A stretch of DNA of 63,421 nucleotides from an uncultured Planctomycetia bacterium (lineage in GTDB: Bacteria > Omnitrophota > Gorgyraeia > Pluralincolimonadales > Pluralincolimonadaceae): positions 1-63,421 of the forward strand of contig CAZYUB010000013.1 of the NCBI GenBank assembly GCA_964650515.1, given 5' to 3'. The notes beneath the pieces are model-generated. The model searched no databases. It worked only from the letters and a program-made list of their open reading frames with translations, and was not told the DNA's origin. The position numbers and the translations under genes are program-made. Positions 1 to 9,546 of the stretch are shown here, piece after piece (the first letter of the stretch is position 1; each line of letters starts with the position of its first letter).

Positions 1-57
1 CTACGCCCTTCGGGCAAATTGCCTTCGGCAACTTGTTTTATCGCCGGCCCGTTATAC
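1..57 (+). repeat. attC site, 3' part only (divergent type)
   Basis: Hairpin modules GCCC-TTC-GGGC and TTGCC-TTC-GGCAA end in core GTTATAC (51-57); truncated by window edge. Confidence 0.6.
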
Positions 58-123
58 GCAATTGCGCCTAAAAACCGTGAAATAGGTTTGCGGGCGGGGA
101 AAGACAAAATGCAAACAAGCTCC

Positions 124-250
124 TCATAACAAGCCGCTCAATCTTGACGGGCAACTGCTGCGGTTCGATCGAAGTTTTTACTTGAAATCGGCGGTAAGTG
201 CTCTAAAAAGATTTAGTGCTGTTGCCCGCAAATTAGCGGCGGTGTTAGCC
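124..250 (+). repeat. attC site, long divergent type (127 bp)
   Basis: R'' TCATAAC 124-130; arms GCCGCT/AGCGGC and CGGGCAAC/GTTGCCCG; R' GTTAGCC 244-250. Confidence 0.85.
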
Positions 251-259
251 GGAGATAAA

Positions 260-775
260 ATGACTGATAAAAAGATCATGAAACTAGAACAAAGGCCACG
301 CTTTAAAGGTCGCTTCACATTTGAGATCAAAAGTGACGGCACTGTTGACGTTAATTATGCAGGTCCTGCTTTCCGCCAGCAATTAACGCTATCTTTAGCA
401 GGGATAGATCCTAATCCTGCTTATCAGCAGCATAAGGCAATAGATATGATCGTCGGAATGTGCATCTTTGCTATACCTGTTCTTGGTTTTCTTGTAGCGT
501 CAATAAAAGCGCAGCCTGGAACAAATGAATTTCCATGGTTTTTTGGGATGTTTTTGGTATTTTTGTTGCCTCTCGGCTTATGCTGGTATGGATTCATAAA
601 GAAGAGTTTTGATATAGCCATCTTTACGGAATCATCTACCGGGAAGAGCCTTATCATTCATAAAAACTTACCAGATCCCGATACGTTTAATTTGTTCGTG
701 TCCAAACTGCAAGATGCCATTAATAAAAAGCATGGAAATATTAAAGGAAACGATAATATTGGTTTTAAGACATAG
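260..775 (+). CDS. Cassette hypothetical membrane protein (2 TM)
   Basis: GGAG RBS 251-254 before ATG 260; the track's 182 start lies inside attC; two hydrophobic helices. Confidence 0.8.
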   Translation: MTDKKIMKLEQRPRFKGRFTFEIKSDGTVDVNYAGPAFRQQLTLSLAGIDPNPAYQQHKAIDMIVGMCIFAIPVLGFLVASIKAQPGTNEFPWFFGMFLVFLLPLGLCWYGFIKKSFDIAIFTESSTGKSLIIHKNLPDPDTFNLFVSKLQDAINKKHGNIKGNDNIGFKT

Positions 776-776
776 C

Positions 777-839
777 GGCTAACATTTCACTCCAGCGGAG
801 GCTCGCTACGCTCGCACCCGCTGAGTTCAATCGTTAGAA
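777..839 (+). repeat. attC site (host-type backbone)
   Basis: GGCTAAC-ATTTCACTCCAGCGG...CCGCTGAGTTCAATC-GTTAGAA; ACTC(C)AGCGG/CCGCTGAGT with one extrahelical base. Confidence 0.95.
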
Positions 840-846
840 GGAGAAA

Positions 847-1176
847 ATGATAAATAAAACGATAATCTGCGTTATCTTGGTGGCAATAAGTTTAACTATT
901 AGTTTGGCTAACGTATCCGCAGAAGAAGCGATAAACAGAGATGAACCCTCCTTAGGGCTCGAAGAAGCATTAACTCTAGCTAAGGAATACATAAAAGACC
1001 ACAAAATTGATATATCAAAGCATTACCTCGATAATATAAGACTACTAAGCAAATCAAATTGGATGGAAGGAAAACACTGGATTCTGACTTGGCGCTTAAA
1101 AGGGCGTTACGTCGGAGGAGAAATATTTATCATAGTAGGAATGGATAAAAAAATAATAGACATCGGAGGATTATAG
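847..1176 (+). CDS. Cassette small secreted protein (possible PepSY-like fold)
   Basis: AGGAG RBS; signal peptide ending VSA-EE; alpha-beta pattern. Confidence 0.8.
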   Translation: MINKTIICVILVAISLTISLANVSAEEAINRDEPSLGLEEALTLAKEYIKDHKIDISKHYLDNIRLLSKSNWMEGKHWILTWRLKGRYVGGEIFIIVGMDKKIIDIGGL

Positions 1177-1179
1177 AAC

Positions 1180-1255
1180 TTCTAACATTTCACTCCAGCG
1201 GACTGTCCCGGCCGCCTGTTTATAGGGTGCCAGCCGCTGAGTTAAAACGTTAGGC
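1180..1255 (+). repeat. attC site
   Basis: TTCTAAC...GTTAGGC, shared backbone. Confidence 0.95.
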
Positions 1256-1270
1256 GAGGAGAAATATTAA

Positions 1271-1588
1271 ATGAAAAAGCTATCAATTAAATTGTCTGCA
1301 TACTTAATAATAACGATTCTTGCCGCGATTGCTTCAATCATATCGTTTTTCAAGGTTGGAAACTCAGGTCCATTTGATCCAGATAAAAATGCGGTCTATC
1401 GTTATTTATTCTTGTGGATATTATCATTTTCTTTAGGTATCGTTATATCGGTAAGAATAATAAGACTTGCAGCTGGGATGAAGTCCATGATCGGCAATAT
1501 TTGCTGGTCAGCGTACGGAGGGATAACAATATTATTTCACCTATTGTCACTATTTATTCTTTTAAGCTTTGGAGGGGGCGGGAGATGA
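1271..1588 (+). CDS. Cassette hypothetical membrane protein (3 TM)
   Basis: GAGGAG RBS; three hydrophobic segments. Confidence 0.8.
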   Translation: MKKLSIKLSAYLIITILAAIASIISFFKVGNSGPFDPDKNAVYRYLFLWILSFSLGIVISVRIIRLAAGMKSMIGNICWSAYGGITILFHLLSLFILLSFGGGGR

Positions 1589-1601
1589 AGATAATGAAGG
1601 C

Positions 1602-1676
1602 GCCTAACATTTCACTCCAGCGAACGGCGCTGGCCATCTGTTTTAATGTCGCCGCCGCTGAGTTCAATCGTTGGAA
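1602..1676 (+). repeat. attC site
   Basis: GCCTAAC...GTTGGAA, shared backbone. Confidence 0.95.
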
Positions 1677-1684
1677 ATAAAAAT

Positions 1685-2119
1685 ATGATCTATAATAAAT
1701 TTAAAATGTATAAGATTTTTGTGATAGCTGTTTTTGTTTTAACCACATTGTGTTCTTCAAGCATGTCAGCAGAACAAGTATCGTTTGATTCTCCCGTGAG
1801 ATGTGTTTTTCAATACGGTCAATATATGGATTCCCAAAAAGCTAAAACCGACACACAAAAAAATGAACTTGAGTGGGTTTTCTATGATCTCCTTGGCTCA
1901 AAACCGTATTTTTATGCAGGTGGTGATACCGGTTCGATAGAAGTACATAAACACACAACAAGTGATGGATTATCTGTTTGGCTTAAGCAAGGGAATGGCG
2001 CACATCTGTTCTCAATTTGGCCAGATGGAACAGCTTTTTGGAGTAAACATAATGACTTATTCAACAAGGCTACGCAACAGTTTCGTGGGACTTGCACAAA
2101 TATTAGGAAAGTAGAATAA
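1685..2119 (+). CDS. Cassette hypothetical secreted beta-rich protein (start 1685 or 1706)
   Basis: Signal peptide ending SMSA-EQ; the track's 1646 start lies within attC. Confidence 0.75.
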   Translation: MIYNKFKMYKIFVIAVFVLTTLCSSSMSAEQVSFDSPVRCVFQYGQYMDSQKAKTDTQKNELEWVFYDLLGSKPYFYAGGDTGSIEVHKHTTSDGLSVWLKQGNGAHLFSIWPDGTAFWSKHNDLFNKATQQFRGTCTNIRKVE

Positions 2120-2149
2120 TACGAATAGACTTATACAGATTAAATAATT

Positions 2150-2223
2150 TTCCAACAACTCAATCCAGCGGACGTTCATAGCGGCTTCGCCGCTATGCCC
2201 GCCGCTGATTTCGGGCGTTATGG
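2150..2223 (+). repeat. attC site, divergent type
   Basis: TTCCAAC-AACTCAATCCAGCGG...CCGCTGATTTCGGGC-GTTATGG; internal hairpin CATAGCGGC-TTC-GCCGCTATG. Confidence 0.93.
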
Positions 2224-2256
2224 GAAGATAATTTTTAATCCAGAAAGACATAATAT

Positions 2257-2745
2257 ATGCCTATAATTGTAATTATAGTCTTTTTAATTTTATTAATCAT
2301 TCCAATCGTCGTATCAGTTAGGTTTATCGGCTGTATCTTTTCTTCTGAATTACGCAGCAGGGTAAAAAAACACCCCATTATTCATGCGATATGGGCTATT
2401 ATTACCATCTTACTTATTGCAGGTATTTATGTTCCCTTTTTTGCGGGAGGAGTAAAACCGGTTCCAAAGAGTATATTATGCGCCAACAATTTAAAACAAA
2501 TTGGCCAAGCATGCGCATTTTATAGTGAAGAAAATAACGGCAAGTGGCCTAATCGATTATCGGACCTGGTTCCAACTTACTTAGATGATGAAAAAGTAAT
2601 AAAATGTCCAATTGTAAAGAATCAATATAATTATGTTCAGCCAAATTCAAGCTCGTCATCAAATACGGTTGTAATATATTGTGAACATCCTAAGCCAACT
2701 CATAGCGTTGTACTATATAAAGGTGGATATATAAGGATTAGGTGA
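2257..2745 (+). CDS. Cassette membrane-anchored pilin-like protein (DUF1559/PVC pseudopilin-like domain)
   Basis: AIITILLIAGIYVP followed by C-x-NNLKQIG-x-A-x3-Y-x5-G-x2-P; no G|F-x-x-x-E prepilin site. Confidence 0.65.
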   Translation: MPIIVIIVFLILLIIPIVVSVRFIGCIFSSELRSRVKKHPIIHAIWAIITILLIAGIYVPFFAGGVKPVPKSILCANNLKQIGQACAFYSEENNGKWPNRLSDLVPTYLDDEKVIKCPIVKNQYNYVQPNSSSSSNTVVIYCEHPKPTHSVVLYKGGYIRIR

Positions 2746-2760
2746 TGAAGAAATATAAAC

Positions 2761-2835
2761 CCATAACATTTCACTCCAGCGGACTGTCCCAGCATCCTGT
2801 TTTAAGGGGCCAGCCGCTGAGTTCAAACGTTAGCT
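2761..2835 (+). repeat. attC site
   Basis: CCATAAC...GTTAGCT, shared backbone. Confidence 0.95.
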
Positions 2836-2843
2836 GAAGGAAA

Positions 2844-3182
2844 ATGGATAAAATAACAAAAAATAGAACGACAATATTGATCTATGGTATTTTATCCGCC
2901 ATATTGTTTGTGCTTATCTTTATAAAGGAATCGGCGCCATCCGGGGATGTGCCAAAGGCATGGGTGCATGGTGTTACATATGTTTTGCCGTTAGCTTTAG
3001 GATCTATGATATTCGGTTGGATTGGTATTATAAGGCTTATAATATTAACTAAAAGTCTTGGTTTGAAACAAGTATTTAGAGATATAAAAACAATCATCTC
3101 AGGAATATTACTATTGCCAGCCGTATATTTGACTGTGCAAATGATCAGAATAATAGTTATTTCAATGAAACAGAGCAGCTAA
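2844..3182 (+). CDS. Cassette hypothetical membrane protein (3 TM)
   Basis: Three hydrophobic helices; TAA stop inside R''. Confidence 0.8.
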   Translation: MDKITKNRTTILIYGILSAILFVLIFIKESAPSGDVPKAWVHGVTYVLPLALGSMIFGWIGIIRLIILTKSLGLKQVFRDIKTIISGILLLPAVYLTVQMIRIIVISMKQSS

Positions 3183-3251
3183 CATCTTACTCCAGCGGAC
3201 TGTCCCAGCGTCCTGTTTTAAGGTGCCACCCGCTGAGTTCAATCGTTATGC
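3177..3251 (+). repeat. attC site
   Basis: AGCTAAC...GTTATGC, shared backbone. Confidence 0.95.
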
Positions 3252-3694
3252 ATAAAATAATAAAATATATAAAAAATCTTTATAATAATAACTCAAATAA
3301 GAAGTGCGTTATTCATCCAGATATAAGCGCACTGAACATATGCAATGGATGTAAGAAATACTACTGCAAAAATTGTTTGACTGAAGGCCTCAAATATTAT
3401 TATTGCGCCTCACGAGAATGCCGAAAATTATATCTTCAAGAATTAGATTATGCAAATAATCCAAGGTTTTGCCAGAAATGCATTTCAGAAACAACAGAAG
3501 AATCAGCAGGGAATATAGTTACTGTAAATGGCATTTTCGGAGAAAATCTATATGATGAAACGCATCGAGATTGCCCAATTTGCGGTGCCGTTACCTGTGA
3601 AAAAGTAGGCACATTTGGGCGGTACAAAGCTTCATATAAGGTAATATGGCTTAATGATGAAAGAACAAAATTTATATCAAGGAAAATAAAATAG
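3248..3694 (+). CDS. Cassette Cys-rich Zn-finger protein (B-box-like plus second Zn ribbon)
   Basis: C-x2-H-x7-C-x2-C-x4-C-x2-C-x9-C-x4-C, then CxxC...CxxC; ATG embedded in R'. Confidence 0.7.
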   Translation: MHKIIKYIKNLYNNNSNKKCVIHPDISALNICNGCKKYYCKNCLTEGLKYYYCASRECRKLYLQELDYANNPRFCQKCISETTEESAGNIVTVNGIFGENLYDETHRDCPICGAVTCEKVGTFGRYKASYKVIWLNDERTKFISRKIK

Positions 3695-3768
3695 CATAAC
3701 ATTTCACTCCAGCGGACCGCGCCAGGTATCTTTTAGCAGGGCTTGGCCGCTGAGTTCAATCGTTAGCA
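3694..3768 (+). repeat. attC site
   Basis: GCATAAC...GTTAGCA, shared backbone. Confidence 0.95.
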
Positions 3769-3780
3769 GGGGATAATAAT

Positions 3781-4041
3781 ATGACAGGATGCCCGCAAAG
3801 CAATAGGACATATGACAAAAAAGAAGATAAATGTGCGAATTGCGGGCATAGCGAATTCCCAGGGCCGGTCATATCAAGCAGCCCGATTAATGCTAATCCC
3901 GAAGATCAATTAGGATCATATAAATTCTTTGCAGCCTGGCGCAATATAGAAAAAACAAAATTGGGTAAGGCATTGTCAATTATTGCGATATTAGTAGCCA
4001 TTATAATCGCAATATTGATGGTTTTGGCACTGAAAAAGTAA
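3781..4041 (+). CDS. Cassette small Zn-ribbon-like protein with C-terminal TM anchor
   Basis: C...CANCGH at N-terminus; hydrophobic tail ALSIIAILVAIIIAILMVLAL. Confidence 0.7.
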   Translation: MTGCPQSNRTYDKKEDKCANCGHSEFPGPVISSSPINANPEDQLGSYKFFAAWRNIEKTKLGKALSIIAILVAIIIAILMVLALKK

Positions 4042-4048
4042 ATGGGAC

Positions 4049-4122
4049 TGCTAACATTTCACTTCAGCGGACCGCGCCAGCGTGTCTATAGGGGGCTCGG
4101 CCGCTGAGTTCAATCGTTAGCC
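4049..4122 (+). repeat. attC site
   Basis: TGCTAAC...GTTAGCC, shared backbone. Confidence 0.95.
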
Positions 4123-4142
4123 ATAATAAATAAAATAATATA

Positions 4143-4171
4143 TTGTATATACATTTGTAATATGATATAAT
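4143..4171 (+). promoter_or_regulatory. sigma70 promoter of BrnT/CopG cassette with palindromic operator TGTATATACA (4144-4153)
   Basis: TTGTAT-17-TATAAT with TG extension; ATG begins 7 nt after the -10. Confidence 0.8.
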
Positions 4172-4177
4172 CTATCC

Positions 4178-4435
4178 ATGAAAGAATCGCGCTGGGATCT
4201 TACTAAGAATGAACGATTAAAGAGGATAAGAGGAGTTTCTTTTGATGATTTAATAAATTCAAAGCTAGTATGCATTCTGGAACATCCGGTTAGGAAGAAC
4301 CAGAAATTAATGTTATTTGATTACAAAAAATATATCTGGGTAGTTCCGGTCATAGAAGAAGAGGATTATTACTTTTTAAAAACGCTATACCCAAGCAGAA
4401 AATACACAAAACAATTTAAAGGAGAAATAAAATGA
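4178..4435 (+). CDS. BrnT-like ribonuclease toxin
   Basis: W(D)xxKNExLKxxRGVSF...LKTLYPSRK signature; upstream of CopG-type antitoxin. Confidence 0.85.
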   Translation: MKESRWDLTKNERLKRIRGVSFDDLINSKLVCILEHPVRKNQKLMLFDYKKYIWVVPVIEEEDYYFLKTLYPSRKYTKQFKGEIK

Positions 4436-4680
4436 AAAAGATCAAATTAACCTCAGAAGAGAGAAAAATTGAAAAGGATTTGCTAGAAGGAGTCTATAAA
4501 CCGGTTTCAGAAAGCGATTTTCGCGCCATGTCGGAATCAATTGCTCGTAGAAGAAAAGATGCAGTATTGAATATTAGAGTCAATAGCAAAGACTTGGAAT
4601 ATATTAAACACAAAGCTAGAAAGCTCGGGATAAAATATCAAACATTTATTTCAGAAATTATTCACAAGGTGGCATTATAA
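4432..4680 (+). CDS. BrnA/CopG-family antitoxin (C-terminal RHH)
   Basis: KDAVLNIRVNSKDLxxIKxKAxxxGIKYQTFISEIIH; AGGAG RBS; overlaps toxin stop. Confidence 0.88.
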   Translation: MKKIKLTSEERKIEKDLLEGVYKPVSESDFRAMSESIARRRKDAVLNIRVNSKDLEYIKHKARKLGIKYQTFISEIIHKVAL

Positions 4681-4684
4681 AAAG

Positions 4685-4759
4685 GGCTAACATCTCACTC
4701 CAGCGGACTGTCCCAGCTCCCTGTTTTAATGGGCCAGCCGCTGAGTTCAATCGTTGGCC
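4685..4759 (+). repeat. attC site
   Basis: GGCTAAC...GTTGGCC, shared backbone. Confidence 0.95.
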
Positions 4760-4809
4760 GTAATAATATGAAAAATAGAATAACAACCGATATCCCTGCC
4801 TGATTCGTC

Positions 4810-4838
4810 TTGATAATTGAAAGATAACCTGATAAAAT
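4810..4838 (+). promoter_or_regulatory. Putative sigma70 promoter of R-M cassette
   Basis: TTGATA-17-TAAAAT with TG extension; ATG begins 7 nt after the -10. Confidence 0.65.
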
Positions 4839-4844
4839 GAAGCC

Positions 4845-5576
4845 ATGAACGAGAACGAAATCCTTAAAAAATTACCTAATCTCACCGAAAGAGCCGTTTC
4901 AAGTTATTGGCAAACGAGAACTTCTCAGCGCAAAAAACAAAAGAAATCAGGAAAGGCTGATCAAGGGCTTCGTAGCGCCGTCACTGGCGGCGCACAGATG
5001 GACGGTTTCATCAATATATTCACGGAATTAGCTTTGCATGCAGGTATCCCAAAAGACTGCATATTTCGAAAAAAAGCCGTTGAGCTTCCCGGGTTTTTTA
5101 GACCTACCAAAGAGTGGGATTTACTTATTGTATGCAAAAACACTCTTATCGCCGCAATCGAAGCTAAGTCGCAGGTTGGTCCTTCTTTTGGGAACAATTT
5201 CAATAACAGAACAGAAGAAGCAATAGGCAGCGCCCTGGATATTTGGACAGCCTTTCGAGAAAAAGCATATCTTGAAAGCCCGCAACCGTTTCTTGGCTAT
5301 TTTTTTATGCTAGAAGATTGCGAAGCGTCAAATCAACCCGTCAGCGTAAACGAACCCCACTTTAAAGTATTTCCTGAATTTATCGGTGCATCATATATGC
5401 GCCGTTATGAGCTATTTTGCCGTAAACTTGTTTTAGAGAGACATTATACAGCTTCTACTTTCATTACCTCATCGGCTATAAACGGTCTCAAAGGCTCTTA
5501 TAAAACACCGGCCGACGATCTATCAATGGAACGCTTTGCGAAGGTGTTGCTTTCTCACATAGCAACCTTCAGGTAA
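4845..5576 (+). CDS. Type II restriction endonuclease, XhoI/PaeR7I family
   Basis: LPGFFRPTKEWDL...IEAKSQVGPSFGNNFNNRTEEAIGSA family motif with PD-(D/E)xK core. Confidence 0.88.
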   Translation: MNENEILKKLPNLTERAVSSYWQTRTSQRKKQKKSGKADQGLRSAVTGGAQMDGFINIFTELALHAGIPKDCIFRKKAVELPGFFRPTKEWDLLIVCKNTLIAAIEAKSQVGPSFGNNFNNRTEEAIGSALDIWTAFREKAYLESPQPFLGYFFMLEDCEASNQPVSVNEPHFKVFPEFIGASYMRRYELFCRKLVLERHYTASTFITSSAINGLKGSYKTPADDLSMERFAKVLLSHIATFR

Positions 5577-5580
5577 AACT

Positions 5581-6531
5581 ATGCCTACAACGCACAGATT
5601 AATCAACGGAGATGCGCGAGACCTATCTTTCTTAGATGATGGATCGGTACATCTTGTTGTCACATCTCCACCCTACTGGAACCTAAAACGCTACAACGAA
5701 AGTCCAGACCAGATGGGGCATATTCAAGATTACGAGATATTTTTAAAAGAACTGGAAAAAGTATGGAAACAGGCATTTCGCGTTCTCGTGCCCGGTGGCC
5801 GATTAGTATGTGTGGTTGGAGACGTCTGCGTAGCTAGAAAAGATTATGGACGACATTTAGTATTTCCGCTTCATGCGGATATTTGCGTACTATGTCGAAA
5901 AATCGGTTTTGACAATCTAAACCCGATCATATGGCATAAAATATCCAACGCCTCATATGAAGTGAATAACGGCTCAAAGTTTTTAGGAAAACCATACGAA
6001 CCCAACGCTATCATAAAGAATGATATGGAGTTCATCCTTATGCAGCGCAAGCCGGGGGGATATAGAAAACCATCCTATGCTCAACGAAAAGCAAGCAAAA
6101 TTCCTAAAGATAAATTTAATCGTTGGTTTCAACAAATATGGAATATCCCTGGGGCATCAACTAAACATCACCCGGCTCCATTTCCATTAGAGCTGGCGGA
6201 TCGTCTAGTGCGCATGTTTTCATTTGTTGGTGACACAGTATTGGATCCGTTTTGCGGTTCTGGCACAACCATGGTTGCCGCATTAAAGTCGGGCCGAAAC
6301 AGCATAGGAATAGAAATCGATCCTGAATATTGTAAAATGGTCGCTCGAAATGTAAGGTCCGAATTAAGCAACCTTTTTTCAAGCGATACATTTATCTTCG
6401 AGAAAGACGCAAAAGAAAATAAAGTTCCCTACATAAAATGTGAAGATATTTATAATATTCGCCCACCTAAAAATAAATTAAAAGAGGCCAACATTTCACT
6501 CCAGCGGATCCGCCTTGCGGCGGACCGCTGA
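5581..6531 (+). CDS. DNA amino-methyltransferase, beta class (N4-C/N6-A)
   Basis: Motif IV TSPPY near N-terminus, HPAPFP, motif I VLDPFCGSGTT near C-terminus; last 15 codons lie inside attC. Confidence 0.92.
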   Translation: MPTTHRLINGDARDLSFLDDGSVHLVVTSPPYWNLKRYNESPDQMGHIQDYEIFLKELEKVWKQAFRVLVPGGRLVCVVGDVCVARKDYGRHLVFPLHADICVLCRKIGFDNLNPIIWHKISNASYEVNNGSKFLGKPYEPNAIIKNDMEFILMQRKPGGYRKPSYAQRKASKIPKDKFNRWFQQIWNIPGASTKHHPAPFPLELADRLVRMFSFVGDTVLDPFCGSGTTMVAALKSGRNSIGIEIDPEYCKMVARNVRSELSNLFSSDTFIFEKDAKENKVPYIKCEDIYNIRPPKNKLKEANISLQRIRLAADR

Positions 6532-6546
6532 GTTCAATCGTTCTCC
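6486..6546 (+). repeat. attC site (short, overlapped by MTase 3' end)
   Basis: GGCCAAC...GTTCTCC; internal CCGCC-TTGC-GGCGG hairpin. Confidence 0.93.
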
Positions 6547-6564
6547 GTAATTATAATATAATGC

Positions 6565-6593
6565 TTGACATAGTATACATTAATGTGTATACT
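6565..6593 (+). promoter_or_regulatory. sigma70 promoter of Phd/RelE cassette with operator AGTATACA-N6-TGTATACT (6572-6593)
   Basis: TTGACA-17-TATACT; perfect 8-bp inverted repeat covers spacer and -10. Confidence 0.85.
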
Positions 6594-6619
6594 TATCCTT
6601 GATAAAGGAGGACGTGCAA

Positions 6620-6892
6620 ATGACCCATACCATTACATTAAAAGCTTTACGCCCTGGATTACCTAAAGTAGCTAGCGCTATAGCATCGAGATACGACCGC
6701 TATATTGTTACAAAACGCGGCAACCCCGTCATGATGCTTATCAATCCGGAAGATTTTGAAGGACTTCTCGAAACAATAGAAATTCTTTCCGACAAAACTG
6801 CCTTAAGACGCATAAAAAAAGCAAGAAAAGAAGCGGAAGCCGGCAAGACCGTCACACTTGCAGAACTAAGGCGTCGGATCGAGCGTGTATAG
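6620..6892 (+). CDS. Phd/YefM-family antitoxin
   Basis: AAGGAGG RBS; IVTKRGNPVMMLINPEDFEGLLETIEILSD motif. Confidence 0.9.
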   Translation: MTHTITLKALRPGLPKVASAIASRYDRYIVTKRGNPVMMLINPEDFEGLLETIEILSDKTALRRIKKARKEAEAGKTVTLAELRRRIERV

Positions 6893-7145
6893 TTTGGAAT
6901 TTGGCAGGCAGGTCGGAAGAGATCTGAAAAAAGTATACCATTCCGACAAAGCGCTATATCAAAGATTTATCAACGCATTTGAAGATATGGCGAGATCTCC
7001 TGAACAGGGGAAGAGGCTTCACGGTAAGCTCTCAGGCTTGTATTCCCACAGAATGGGAAGCTATAGGATTATATACGAAGTTTATCACTCAAAGCTATTG
7101 GTTATCATTCTAGATTTGGGCCATCGTAAAGATGTCTATCGATAA
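6885..7145 (+). CDS. RelE/ParE-family toxin
   Basis: GKRLHGKLSGLYSHRMGSYRIIYEV...LGHRKDVYR; GTG start overlaps antitoxin. Confidence 0.9.
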   Translation: MYSLEFGRQVGRDLKKVYHSDKALYQRFINAFEDMARSPEQGKRLHGKLSGLYSHRMGSYRIIYEVYHSKLLVIILDLGHRKDVYR

Positions 7146-7146
7146 A

Positions 7147-7395
7147 ATGAAAAAGATTAAACTGACTTCAGAAGAAAGAAAGATCGAAAAAAATCTCTTA
7201 GCTGTGGTTTATAAGTCCGCTTCGGCCAGCAAATTCCATGCTGTATCAGAAGCGATTGCGCATAGGAAAGAGGATGTGCTAAAGGAAATGCAAGAAAATC
7301 TAACAGACAGAAAAGTTATCGATAAATTTGAAGCGGAAGAACGCGCTAAAAATGTACGTTTTTATACGGCTGATGAAATACGGAAAAGAATATAA
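7147..7395 (+). CDS. Chimeric antitoxin-like protein (BrnA-type N-terminus plus RelB/Phd-like acidic-basic tail)
   Basis: 30 of the first 43 aa are identical to the 4432-4680 antitoxin; the RHH domain is replaced by ENLTDRKVIDKFEAEERAKNVRFYTADEIRKRI. Confidence 0.75.
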   Translation: MKKIKLTSEERKIEKNLLAVVYKSASASKFHAVSEAIAHRKEDVLKEMQENLTDRKVIDKFEAEERAKNVRFYTADEIRKRI

Positions 7396-7399
7396 AAAC

Positions 7400-7476
7400 G
7401 GAGAACATTTCACTCCAGCCCTCCGCAGTTTTGCTGGCGCAAAACTAAACGCGAGGGCTGGGTTCAAATGTTGGGC
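7400..7476 (+). repeat. Terminal attC site
   Basis: GGAGAAC...GTTGGGC; internal AGTTTTGC-TGGC-GCAAAACT hairpin. Confidence 0.9.
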
Positions 7477-7490
7477 TTTAGGAGAAGATA

Positions 7491-8081
7491 ATGTTTGATG
7501 ACATACCGCAGGGCATCCTTAACCGGATGAAGGAGCTTGAGCAGATCGACGCTCAAGATCGAGCTGACGGCACAGCCCGACTTGAGCGCCTTCGCCAGAT
7601 TCCCCCGGAGACAGGCAAGTTTATCGCGCTTCTTGCCGCAACCGCTCCTGCAGGACGATATCTTGAGATAGGAACCAGTGCAGGCTACTCCACTCTCTGG
7701 CTCGCGCTGGCGTGTCGCCTAGTCGGTCGAAGGATCACAACATTCGAAGTCCTTGACCAGAAGGTTAAACTGGCACGTCACACATTCGAAAGGGCAGGTG
7801 TCGGCGATGTCGTGGACCTCATCCACGGCAATGCCCTTGGCTATCTCCCCGGTTGTTCCGACGTGTCATTCTGTTTTCTCGACGCAGAAAAGGATATCTA
7901 CGCCGAGTGTTACGAAGTCATTGTCCCCAATATGGTGCCTGGCGGCATTCTTGTTGCCGACAACGCCATCAACCATGAGAAGGCGCTTCGGCCCATGCTG
8001 GACCGGGCATTGACCGATGACCGCGTGGACGCGCTCATCGTCCCGATCGGAAAAGGCGAACTGGTGTGCAGGAAGAAATGA
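7491..8081 (+). CDS. SAM-dependent O-methyltransferase (YrrM/COMT-like)
   Basis: [16 protein letters not shown] motif I; FCFLDAEK; ILVADN. Confidence 0.9.
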
Positions 8082-8521
8082 CTAAACCGATCACACCACT
8101 TGTTGGCGCAGACACATTCCTTGTAAATGACAAGTCGCAGGTATGCCTCATCCAGCGTTCGGATACCCGGCTCTGGGCTTTGCCGGGCGGCTGTCAGGAT
8201 CTGGGTGAAACGCCAAAACAATGCGCGGAACGGGAATTTTACGAGGAGACGGGCCTGCAAATCGAGGCAACCCATTTGCTTGGTGTCTTCAGTTCTACCC
8301 TCTATTCCTACGACACCTATCCGTACAAGGAAAACGAATTTTGCCACTTGCTCTTCTTTGGCCGTTTTCTCGGGGGAAAAGAGAGAATATCCGGCGAATC
8401 AAAAGCTATTGCCTGGTATTCTGAAAATTCCCTGCCAAAGCTTTCAGATGGCCACGAACCCAGGATCCGGTTTGGTTTCGCCTGGCTGAAAAACAAATCT
8501 ATAGGGCCACACTTTGAATGA
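8078..8521 (+). CDS. Nudix hydrolase
   Basis: Nudix box [23 protein letters not shown]; ATGA overlap with upstream stop. Confidence 0.9.
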
Positions 8522-9393
8522 AAAGTAAAATACTCCTATTAGGCATCACGCTGGCCGTATTATTCTTTCTTTTGTCGGTCCTGCCCGTCAATTCGCGCTA
8601 TGCTTATTCCGGCGACATCCATATATATTACGAGGACTACGGGCGAAAGGATGCCCCGGCGATCGTCTTCATCCACGGCTGGTCGTGCGACCATACCGTA
8701 TGGCGGCTGCAGGTACCGGAGTTACGCAAGGACTACCGCCTTATCATCGTTGATCTGCCCGGCTTCGGGTCAAGCAGCAAGCCCACCAATGTCGCGTATA
8801 CCCCGGATTATCTCGCCGAGGCCGTCGGCGCGGTAATGTCGTCGGCCGGGATAGAGCGCGCCGTTCTTGTCGGGCACAGCAGCGGTTTTGCGGTAGCGCG
8901 CAGGTTTGCGATCAAGTATCCCGAGAAGACCGCGGCGATCTGCGACGTAGATGGGGTATTTATGGATCTGGCCTGGGACCCGAAAGCCCTGGAGGCGTTC
9001 AAGGCCGAGATGGACACCTTTATGAAAGGGCTCAACGGCAAGGACAGGGAAGAGTTCGTTCGCTGGTTCGTTAATATGACTTTCTACGGCAAGACCCCGG
9101 AATCTCTGCAAAAAGAGATAATGGTGTTAATGACCAAAGCGAACGCGTATGCCGCCAACAGCGCGATGGAGGAGATGTGGCGCCCCAAGGAGTGGGAGAG
9201 AGCCGTAGTCAAGGCGCCCATGCTGGCTATCTACGCAAAGATACCGGAATTGCCTCTCGACGAGGAGGCGCAGCTAAAAGCCCAATTCCCCGATCTTACC
9301 TACGTCGAATGGGACGATACCGGGCATTTCCTGATGATGCAGCATCCGGAAAGGTTCAATAAACTGCTGTCGGATTTCATCAAAAGCCTATAA
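8518..9393 (+). CDS. Exported alpha/beta hydrolase
   Basis: Signal/anchor helix; VFIHGW oxyanion motif; GHSSG nucleophile elbow; C-terminal GHFLM. Confidence 0.9.
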   Translation: MKSKILLLGITLAVLFFLLSVLPVNSRYAYSGDIHIYYEDYGRKDAPAIVFIHGWSCDHTVWRLQVPELRKDYRLIIVDLPGFGSSSKPTNVAYTPDYLAEAVGAVMSSAGIERAVLVGHSSGFAVARRFAIKYPEKTAAICDVDGVFMDLAWDPKALEAFKAEMDTFMKGLNGKDREEFVRWFVNMTFYGKTPESLQKEIMVLMTKANAYAANSAMEEMWRPKEWERAVVKAPMLAIYAKIPELPLDEEAQLKAQFPDLTYVEWDDTGHFLMMQHPERFNKLLSDFIKSL

Positions 9394-9453
9394 AGAAGAT
9401 TTTTGAAAGAAAATCCCTCCTTTTTACGTCTACTATAGCGTCCTATAATATTA

Positions 9454-9481
9454 TTGACATATTTGTCGGGTGTGCTATAAT
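9454..9481 (+). promoter_or_regulatory. sigma70 promoter of ilv operon
   Basis: TTGACA-16-TATAAT with TG extension. Confidence 0.85.
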
Positions 9482-9546
9482 TCTGGTTTACAATGGCTTA
9501 GACTTTCCTTACGCCAGTAACCCCAAGTAATATAAGGAGATATATC

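Follow-up and report, generated by a model that had tools for sequence, protein, structure and literature searches.

In three-gene toxin–antitoxin (TA) operons such as PaaR2-PaaA2-ParE2 and omega-epsilon-zeta, the antitoxin is a small helical protein that does not bind DNA and another component of the operon performs this task. PaaA-ParE is placed among the atypical TA modules (PMC5086665). Antitoxins also occur as orphans that may neutralize toxins encoded elsewhere, as in Erwinia chrysanthemi CcdA versus the CcdB of the F plasmid and in Bartonella pVbh (PMC7354431), and sedentary chromosomal integrons (e.g., the Vibrio superintegron) carry TA cassettes bounded by attC sites (PMC13108822). 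The BrnA-type antitoxins have a C-terminal ribbon-helix-helix (RHH) domain with a stated regulatory role (PMC11980606), and presumably bind toxin through the N-terminal part. Integron TA cassettes, antitoxin modularity, orphans with proposed anti-addiction roles, and three-gene TA systems with an antitoxin that does not bind DNA are thus known (PMC13108822, PMC7354431, PMC5086665, PMC11980606), and in the literature we found no natural fusion of antitoxins from two families that lacks a DNA-binding domain and lies inside the cassette of a third TA system. Here we describe a gene of this kind, ORF3, in a 63,421-nucleotide stretch (the window) of contig CAZYUB010000013.1 from an uncultured Planctomycetia bacterium. 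ORF3 is the third open reading frame (ORF) of a phd-relE integron cassette and encodes a genuine recombinant mini-protein that joins the non-DNA-binding halves of two antitoxins. The segments of ORF3 and the gene pair that represents the donor of its N-half (the antitoxin of which is called X below) are as follows.

7147-7395, + strand: ORF3, with ATG at 7147 and stop codon at 7393-7395, 82 residues, third gene after phd and relE.
7147-7275, + strand: N-half of ORF3, codons 1-43, which stem from the N-terminal module (outside the RHH) of an X antitoxin (PF12441/BrnA-like).
7276-7395, + strand: C-half of ORF3, codons 44-82 plus the stop codon, derived from the C-terminal part of a DUF6290 antitoxin.
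4178-4435, + strand: brnT-like toxin gene of a donor-type cassette in the same array.
4432-4680, + strand: X antitoxin gene, encoding the N-module followed by a C-terminal RHH, paralog of the ORF3 N-half; an attC site follows at 4689-4755.

In pairwise comparison ORF3 and the 82-residue X protein were identical at 32 of the 54 residues aligned (E = 2e-18). Within residues 1-43 of ORF3 (window 4432-4560 in X) 30 of 43 residues were identical, and residues 1-15 (MKKIKLTSEERKIEK) were the same in both proteins, although seven of these 15 codons (4, 6, 7, 10, 12, 13, and 15) differed, all synonymously. This N-terminal likeness had been reported in a preliminary description of the locus made from the letters alone and was borne out in every figure. 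The likeness stops at codon 43/44, the point at which X enters its RHH domain. No RHH was found in ORF3 by Pfam or NCBIfam, the sequence past residue 43 having been swapped, and neither Pfam, NCBIfam, nor PADLOC yielded a match above threshold or a DNA-binding domain. The preliminary description was therefore right that the RHH had been replaced to give a chimera without a DNA-binding domain; the replacement came from another antitoxin. Owing to the missing RHH, ORF3 falls outside the definitions of both parental families. It lacks the C-terminal RHH of the BrnA/CopG antitoxins (PF12441, PF14384, NF047399), and against the DUF6290 profile (PF19807, gathering cut-off 27) it scored 15.8 bits with only profile positions 34-71 matched. 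As PF02604 gave no match, ORF3 is not a Phd/YefM protein by profile, and it is without the DNA-binding domain for operon autoregulation that the definition of type II antitoxins expects. Its gene is not directly downstream of a BrnT-fold toxin gene; the upstream neighbor encodes a RelE/ParE toxin.

The N-half donor belongs to a BrnT-type system, as had been proposed, since the gene preceding X encodes a BrnT-fold toxin. The 4178 product had no Pfam match by sequence (BrnT_toxin is too distant to detect). However, the AlphaFold2 (AF2) model of the protein (predicted local distance difference test score, pLDDT, 93; predicted template modeling score, pTM, 0.81) had as its top PDB fold match Brucella BrnT, 3u97 (E = 1.8e-3, probability 1.00, template modeling scores 0.60/0.65). 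Homologs of the toxin are labeled "DUF497" by JGI and "toxin" by NCBI. X matched PF12441 (CopG_antitoxin) at residues 40-78 (E = 3.6e-5) and gave a weak match to the NCBIfam BrnA model. It lies at the edge of PF12441, and the family members P0034 and P0057 score above the Pfam gathering score. X-type antitoxins pair with BrnT-like toxins in the window and in loci L014 and L015. The N-half of ORF3 presumably targets the 4178 toxin. PDB sequence searches with X, with P0006 (a DUF6290 protein considered below), with the BrnT-like toxin, and with the profile of its family returned chance matches only, and a scan of GTDB genomes returned only three loci, all X-type.

Near-identical orphan X genes with no adjoining BrnT-like toxin gene are present at 3403-3651 of L012, a metagenome-assembled genome (MAG) of an uncultured bacterium in which the orphan follows a hicAB pair, and at 5001-5249 of L013, an Omnitrophota MAG. 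The X proteins of Omnitrophota and Planctomycetia MAGs look much alike, which implies recent horizontal spread. The host lineage of ORF3 is uncultured and has cassettes in common with MAGs of both groups.

The C-half of ORF3 came from another family. Residues 45-82 are 84% identical over 38 residues to the C-terminus of P0006 and P0007, 71-residue DUF6290 members (PF19807, E = 1.7e-13) with an N-terminal RHH, and ORF3 residues 44-81 aligned with PF19807 positions 34-71 (E = 0.016). The C-half spans the end of RHH helix 2 plus the presumed toxin-binding tail of such an antitoxin. At the nucleotide level window 7284-7419, which comprises the tail and the start of the adjoining attC site, matches the 3' end of the DUF6290 cassette of L005 at 90% identity. 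In L011, L016, and L022 the DUF6290 antitoxin gene lies directly 3' of a gene encoding an 89-residue RelE/ParE-like toxin (toxin to antitoxin order), and attC sites of the same type follow DUF6290 antitoxin genes. A metagenome scan with the tail gave at least two DUF6290 loci among the matches listed. The tail thus descends from a true antitoxin whose partner is a RelE/ParE-like toxin, which strengthens the earlier comparison with RelB/Phd toxin-binding tails. The preliminary description had also likened the tail to that of the Phd protein of the same cassette. This resemblance is real but weak (31% over 39 residues, E ~0.03 in a comparison of seven sequences) and the true homolog is the DUF6290 tail. 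Its further suggestion that ORF3 might neutralize the RelE of its own cassette is weakened, because the cognate toxin of the tail is the different 89-residue RelE-like protein of L011, L022, and L016, which is 29% identical to the cassette RelE over just 31 residues. Owing to this distance, and because Phd is intact and highly constrained, the RelE of the cassette would be the least likely target in the mechanism proposed below. In L022 a RelE-like/DUF6290 cassette (127-605) lies directly upstream of a phd-relE cassette (756-1281), and the DUF6290 tail encoded there is a mosaic of the two tail types found in the chimeras.

ORF3 lies in an array of integron gene cassettes. An attC-type repeat (AACATTTCACTCCAGC ... 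TGAGTTCAATCGTT, ending in a GTTRRRY core) is present in ten copies between 781 and 7472, all on the + strand and following ORFs, whereas 0.3 copies of the 5' motif are expected by chance. The sites fold as imperfect hairpins in single-stranded DNA (z -3.4 to -7.0), and the units have the attC boundaries, hairpin folding, and GTTRRRY core that define integron gene cassettes. The phd-relE-ORF3 genes constitute exactly one cassette, the last of the array, which extends from the R' core GTTCTCC (6539-6545) to 7472; no attC was found between the two sites that bound it. Its other features are the following.

6490-6542, + strand: attC closing the preceding restriction-modification cassette, of the array consensus (single-stranded DNA hairpin z = -4.7).
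6565-6593, + strand: cassette-internal promoter, TTGACA-17-TATACT, an 11/12 match to the sigma-70 consensus.
6620-6892, + strand: phd/yefM-type antitoxin gene, 90 residues from ATG 6620 (PF02604, E = 6e-11).
6885-7145, + strand: relE/parE-superfamily toxin gene, 86 residues, its GTG start overlapping the phd stop codon (PF05016, E = 1.4e-11; TIGR02385 RelE_StbE).
7404-7472, + strand: attC that ends the array, with R' GTTGGGC (hairpin z of -5.5 for the + strand and -7.0 for the - strand).

The promoter sequence is also found upstream of phd in L001, L018, L019, and L022. An inverted repeat, GTATACA-N6-TGTATAC (6573-6592), overlaps the promoter and is likely to be the Phd/RelE operator. The ORF3 ATG is located 1 nucleotide past the relE stop codon and is not preceded by a Shine-Dalgarno sequence, so that ORF3 translation is probably coupled to that of relE. 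ATG 7132 may be an alternative start; note that this ATG is dictated by the overlapping RelE codons (D-V) and that X homologs begin MKKIKL. The 5' part of the terminal attC came in with the DUF6290 tail, the start of this site falling within the segment that matches L005 at 90% identity. This terminal site is longer than the others, a near-perfect palindrome with a diverged R' side (GGGTTCAAATGTTGGGC), and the same variant ends the L022 array.

Related cassettes retain the steps by which the chimera was built. By blastn and MAFFT alignment, window 6564-7275 (phd, relE, and ORF3 codons 1-43) is 76% identical to the L006 and L009 cassettes, Omnitrophota integron cassettes that encode Phd, RelE, and an intact X including the RHH, whereas 7284-7419 aligns with L005, which places the breakpoint at codon 43/44. 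The alternative that the tail is a frameshifted RHH was rejected because the DNA past codon 43 aligns with L005 and not with X. In L006 the relE stop codon and the X start codon are separated by 30 nucleotides that represent the 3'-terminal part of a brnT-like gene, Shine-Dalgarno sequence included, and match window 4400-4434. The triad therefore derives from fusion of a phd-relE cassette with a brnT-like/X cassette, in the course of which brnT was lost. This remnant is absent from the window and from every other chimera, having been deleted between ATAAAAT repeats. These comparisons indicate that the ancestor was a two-gene phd-relE cassette like those of L020 and L021 and that the next state was the brnT-like/X fusion, in which brnT was lost and the X RHH was kept together with the remnant of about 30 nucleotides (L006-L010). 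A second deletion, at the ATAAAAT repeats, then took the remnant and the Shine-Dalgarno sequence, and recombination at codon 43/44 swapped the X RHH and attC for the tail and attC of a DUF6290 cassette. Both parental RHH domains were lost and the product consists only of the non-DNA-binding halves.

All chimeras share one junction with no difference in length, which favors a single chimerization event. Although phd and relE are ~90% identical, the window tail is only 68% identical in nucleotide sequence to the tails of L001 and L004, versus 90% to L005, and hence this tail was apparently replaced a second time by exchange with a DUF6290 cassette. Two independent chimerizations (window versus L001) were considered and are unlikely given the identical junction codon and unchanged length; a secondary exchange deeper in the tail, near 7300, fits better. 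As the DUF6290 cassette of L022 adjoins a phd-relE cassette (RelE 94% identical to that of the window), the recombination partner is physically at hand.

The preliminary description had called for a search for such triads in other genomes. The complete triad recurs in three other lineages; intact copies lie in L001/L002, L003, and an ENA contig, and L004 has an intact chimera on a contig cut upstream. In the relatives the state of the third gene, ordered by RelE identity to the window, varies as listed.

Window (7147-7395, + strand), RelE 100%: intact chimera of 82 residues with an L005-like tail.
L018, RelE 95%: X-type third gene with an out-of-frame internal deletion, 15-codon ORF; its attC is also internally deleted.
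L022, RelE 94%: third gene almost completely deleted, 5-codon ORF.
L001/L002, RelE 88%: intact chimera with the second tail type.
L003 and the ENA contig encoding the same ORF3 protein (P0003), RelE 81%: intact chimera with the second tail type.
L004, contig cut upstream: intact chimera with the second tail type.
L019, RelE 76%: chimera with an internal deletion and frameshift, 25-codon ORF.
L006-L010, RelE 76%: intact X with its RHH and the 30-nucleotide brnT remnant.
L020/L021, RelE 63%: third gene absent, two-gene phd-relE cassette.

Another partial chimera, P0010, is cut short at 49 residues, and no relative of ORF3 was found in plasmid and phage collections. In L018, L022, and L019 the third gene has been lost to frameshift or deletion; the cassette can therefore do without this gene, which has been remodeled repeatedly.

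Where intact, the gene shows the marks of selection. All six pairwise comparisons of intact chimeras gave ratios of nonsynonymous to synonymous rates (dN/dS) of 0.10-0.27 at proportions of synonymous differences (pS) of 0.3-0.7 (Fisher p <= 3e-5). In comparisons with relatives the values were 0.05-0.08 for Phd and 0.11-0.21 for RelE. The window tail differs from its donor by pS 0.40 and a proportion of nonsynonymous differences (pN) of 0.08, and the branch leading to the N-half of the window has 10.5 synonymous and 11.5 nonsynonymous changes (omega ~0.25). These ratios indicate purifying selection on the intact copies of ORF3. The earlier claim of purifying selection rather than decay therefore stands for the intact copies but not for the gene in L018, L022, and L019. 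The residues K5, L6, T7, E10, I13, E14, and Y22, invariant in the X family, are retained in every chimera. In the AF2 model ORF3 forms helices at residues 8-21, 27-67 (through the junction), and 75-81 with no beta-strand and no compact globular fold (pLDDT 81, pTM 0.36), and a PDB fold search with this model gave no match. Extended helices of this sort are what toxin-wrapping antitoxin segments look like.

The X N-module has entered other fusions, which are independent analogs of the ORF3 design. In P0027 it is joined at the same boundary to a Phd-type C-terminal half, again without an RHH (34% identical to the window Phd over 41 residues, E = 1e-6). P0052 (L015 1-441), the gene of which directly follows a BrnT-like toxin gene, is a complete X with an appended Phd-type tail (64% over 25 residues), and in P0024 the N-module precedes a BrnA-type RHH (PF14384). 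Fusions that combine neutralizing segments from more than one antitoxin family thus turn up repeatedly in this gene pool, and the three proteins suggest a recurrent "tail capture" among cassette antitoxins.

We propose that ORF3 may be a conditional anti-addiction protein, a toxin sponge without DNA binding that acts in trans, and put the probability of this reading at about one half. On this view the phd-relE promoter would drive ORF3 as well, and its translation would be coupled to that of relE. BrnT-like toxins, including the one encoded 2.7 kb upstream within the array, would be captured by the N-terminal helices of ORF3, and the 89-residue RelE-like toxins of DUF6290 cassettes by its tail. 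ORF3 would thus cushion the cell when brnT-like/X or DUF6290 cassettes are lost or excised, while the carrier cassette would remain addictive through Phd-RelE. Such a benefit would be conditional and the gene would therefore often be lost. Several observations weigh against the proposal. No gene for a DUF6290-type toxin lies in the 63 kb of the window, although the array runs on past the window start, and the Shine-Dalgarno sequence found before X is missing before ORF3. The window copy is altered at otherwise conserved sites, G20V and, in the tail, MYED to MQEN. Note that the window ORF3 carries G20V together with P24S and that a bona fide X beside a BrnT-like toxin (L014) carries G20E together with P24S. 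Three triad lineages, among them the two closest relatives of the window, have a disrupted third gene. Moreover, a profile search of 1.84 billion representative proteins found only one full-length cluster at 50% identity, all other matches covering the N-module or the tail alone, and the intact copies came from a protein search, which is biased toward intactness.

These same observations, namely the decay or deletion in L018, L022, and L019 plus the truncated P0010, the extreme rarity of the architecture, the lost Shine-Dalgarno sequence, and the altered conserved positions, are what would be expected if ORF3 were a neutral recombination scar, a functionless fusion of antitoxin fragments that hitch-hikes on phd-relE and is decaying. 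Orphan antitoxins are commonly interpreted as degraded TA systems (PMC7354431). Moreover, as deletions between neighboring TA cassettes are tolerated only if the toxin goes and the antitoxin sequence stays, an in-frame fusion of antitoxin fragments is an expected relic. We nevertheless regard a scar as somewhat unlikely, since the low dN/dS was found in every intact pair and on the N-half branch of the window, and since the reading frame was kept through the apparent second tail exchange. A neutral ORF so rich in Lys and Glu codons and in A+T would soon acquire stop codons. With purifying selection in some relatives and decay in others, ORF3 is probably either a dispensable sponge acting in trans or a relic, and probably does not belong to the core of the cassette.

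A bispecific anti-addiction role is plausible. The more ambitious version, that a bispecific ORF3 sponges the toxins of two rival cassettes and lets the Phd-RelE cassette disarm its competitors in the array, seems to us rather doubtful. If it were true, it would amount to inter-cassette anti-addiction warfare within the wider tail capture habit of P0027, P0052, and P0024. Still less probable is that ORF3 serves as a second, cis-acting antitoxin of its own RelE, with Phd as the DNA-binding component by analogy to PaaR2-PaaA2-ParE2. The position of ORF3 directly after relE (toxin to antitoxin order is native to both parental antitoxins), the derivation of its tail from antitoxins of RelE/ParE-type toxins, and the weak likeness to the Phd tail would all suit such a role. 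However, the cognate toxin of the tail is distant from this RelE, Phd is strongly constrained (dN/dS 0.05), and relE is intact next to a tail-less third gene (L006-L010), next to a broken one (L018, L019, and L022), and in the two-gene cassettes (L020/L021). Lastly, an assembly artifact, a mis-join of two cassettes at a repeat, which the metagenome-derived look of the window and the repeat-rich nature of cassette arrays might suggest, is effectively refuted by the same junction at equal length in four independent assemblies (L001, L002, L003, and L004), by junction remnants in L019 and L022, and by the 14-22% nucleotide divergence of the copies.

The array as a whole (window 1-7472) has at least ten attC sites and small single ORFs, a large share of which resemble membrane or zinc-ribbon proteins, and abuts the chromosome; G+C is 37-42% in the array and 52-60% beyond 7472. 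No integrase was found among the ORFs examined (window 1-9500), and the array extends past the 5' end of the window. Related arrays with the same attC type begin beside a Phage_int_SAM_4/Phage_integrase gene (L006, L008, and L009), and in L006-L009 this attC type lies downstream of the integron-integrase gene. Between the 4178-4680 and phd-relE-ORF3 cassettes lies a restriction-modification cassette (4756-6542) that encodes both partners of such a system, an XhoI-family endonuclease (4845-5576, PF04555 E = 1e-91) and an N6/N4 DNA methylase (5581-6531). At the other flank a gene for a 291-residue alpha/beta-hydrolase directly follows the array in L018 (4479-5354) and L022 (1624-2499), whereas that of the window (8518-9393) is parted from the array by O-methyltransferase and NUDIX genes (7491-8521). 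Given this difference in spacing, the array-chromosome junction is not the same among close relatives. In L001 the triad cassette is seemingly alone beside housekeeping genes with no upstream attC, and just upstream of it a group I intron (4551-4783, Rfam RF00028, 109 bits) interrupts an apparent tRNA gene between tRNA-Thr and tRNA-Gly.

Few natural cases of antitoxin remodeling have traceable steps. At this locus the intermediates are still present in related arrays, from the two-gene cassette through the toxin-deleted fusion with its brnT remnant, loss of the remnant, and the tail swap, to decay. If functional, ORF3 would be a minimal natural "dual antidote" against two unrelated toxins that does without DNA binding, and would be evidence for competition among integron TA cassettes with a bearing on array stabilization and the policing of cassette excision. 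If a relic, it still shows that toxin-removing deletions shape arrays and create new small ORFs. ORF3 has a clean and well-documented evolutionary history, but it is rare and dispensable and its function is unproven.

The closest known systems each share part of this arrangement. Like Brucella abortus BrnT/BrnA and the CopG_antitoxin families (PF12441 and PF14384), the 4178-4680 donor is toxin-first with a BrnT fold and a C-terminal RHH antitoxin, although its toxin has diverged beyond reach of the Pfam BrnT_toxin model. The N-half of ORF3 shares ancestry with the N-terminal module of that antitoxin, the part outside the RHH, whereas ORF3 itself is without the family-defining, autoregulatory RHH and is not beside a brnT gene. 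With DUF6290 antitoxins (PF19807) it shares the tail and the start of the adjoining attC, but ORF3 has no N-terminal RHH and follows a member of a different RelE subfamily. The ORF3 triad resembles PaaR2-PaaA2-ParE2 and omega-epsilon-zeta in having three genes in one operon and a small helical protein that lacks DNA binding. It differs in that Phd is already a complete RelE antitoxin and the halves of ORF3 derive from antitoxins of other toxins; moreover, PaaA2 is a required antitoxin, whereas the relatives L018, L019, L020, and L022 keep relE without an intact third gene. Orphan antitoxins and anti-addiction modules are likewise antitoxin-derived and have no toxin of their own, but the known examples are whole proteins of single specificity, whereas ORF3 combines segments of two families, has no DNA-binding domain, and resides inside another addiction cassette. 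Finally, like the TA cassettes of sedentary chromosomal integrons, the cassette of the window has its own promoter, is bounded by attC sites, and belongs to a long array; it differs from them in its three genes, its recombinant third gene, and its uncultured host lineage.

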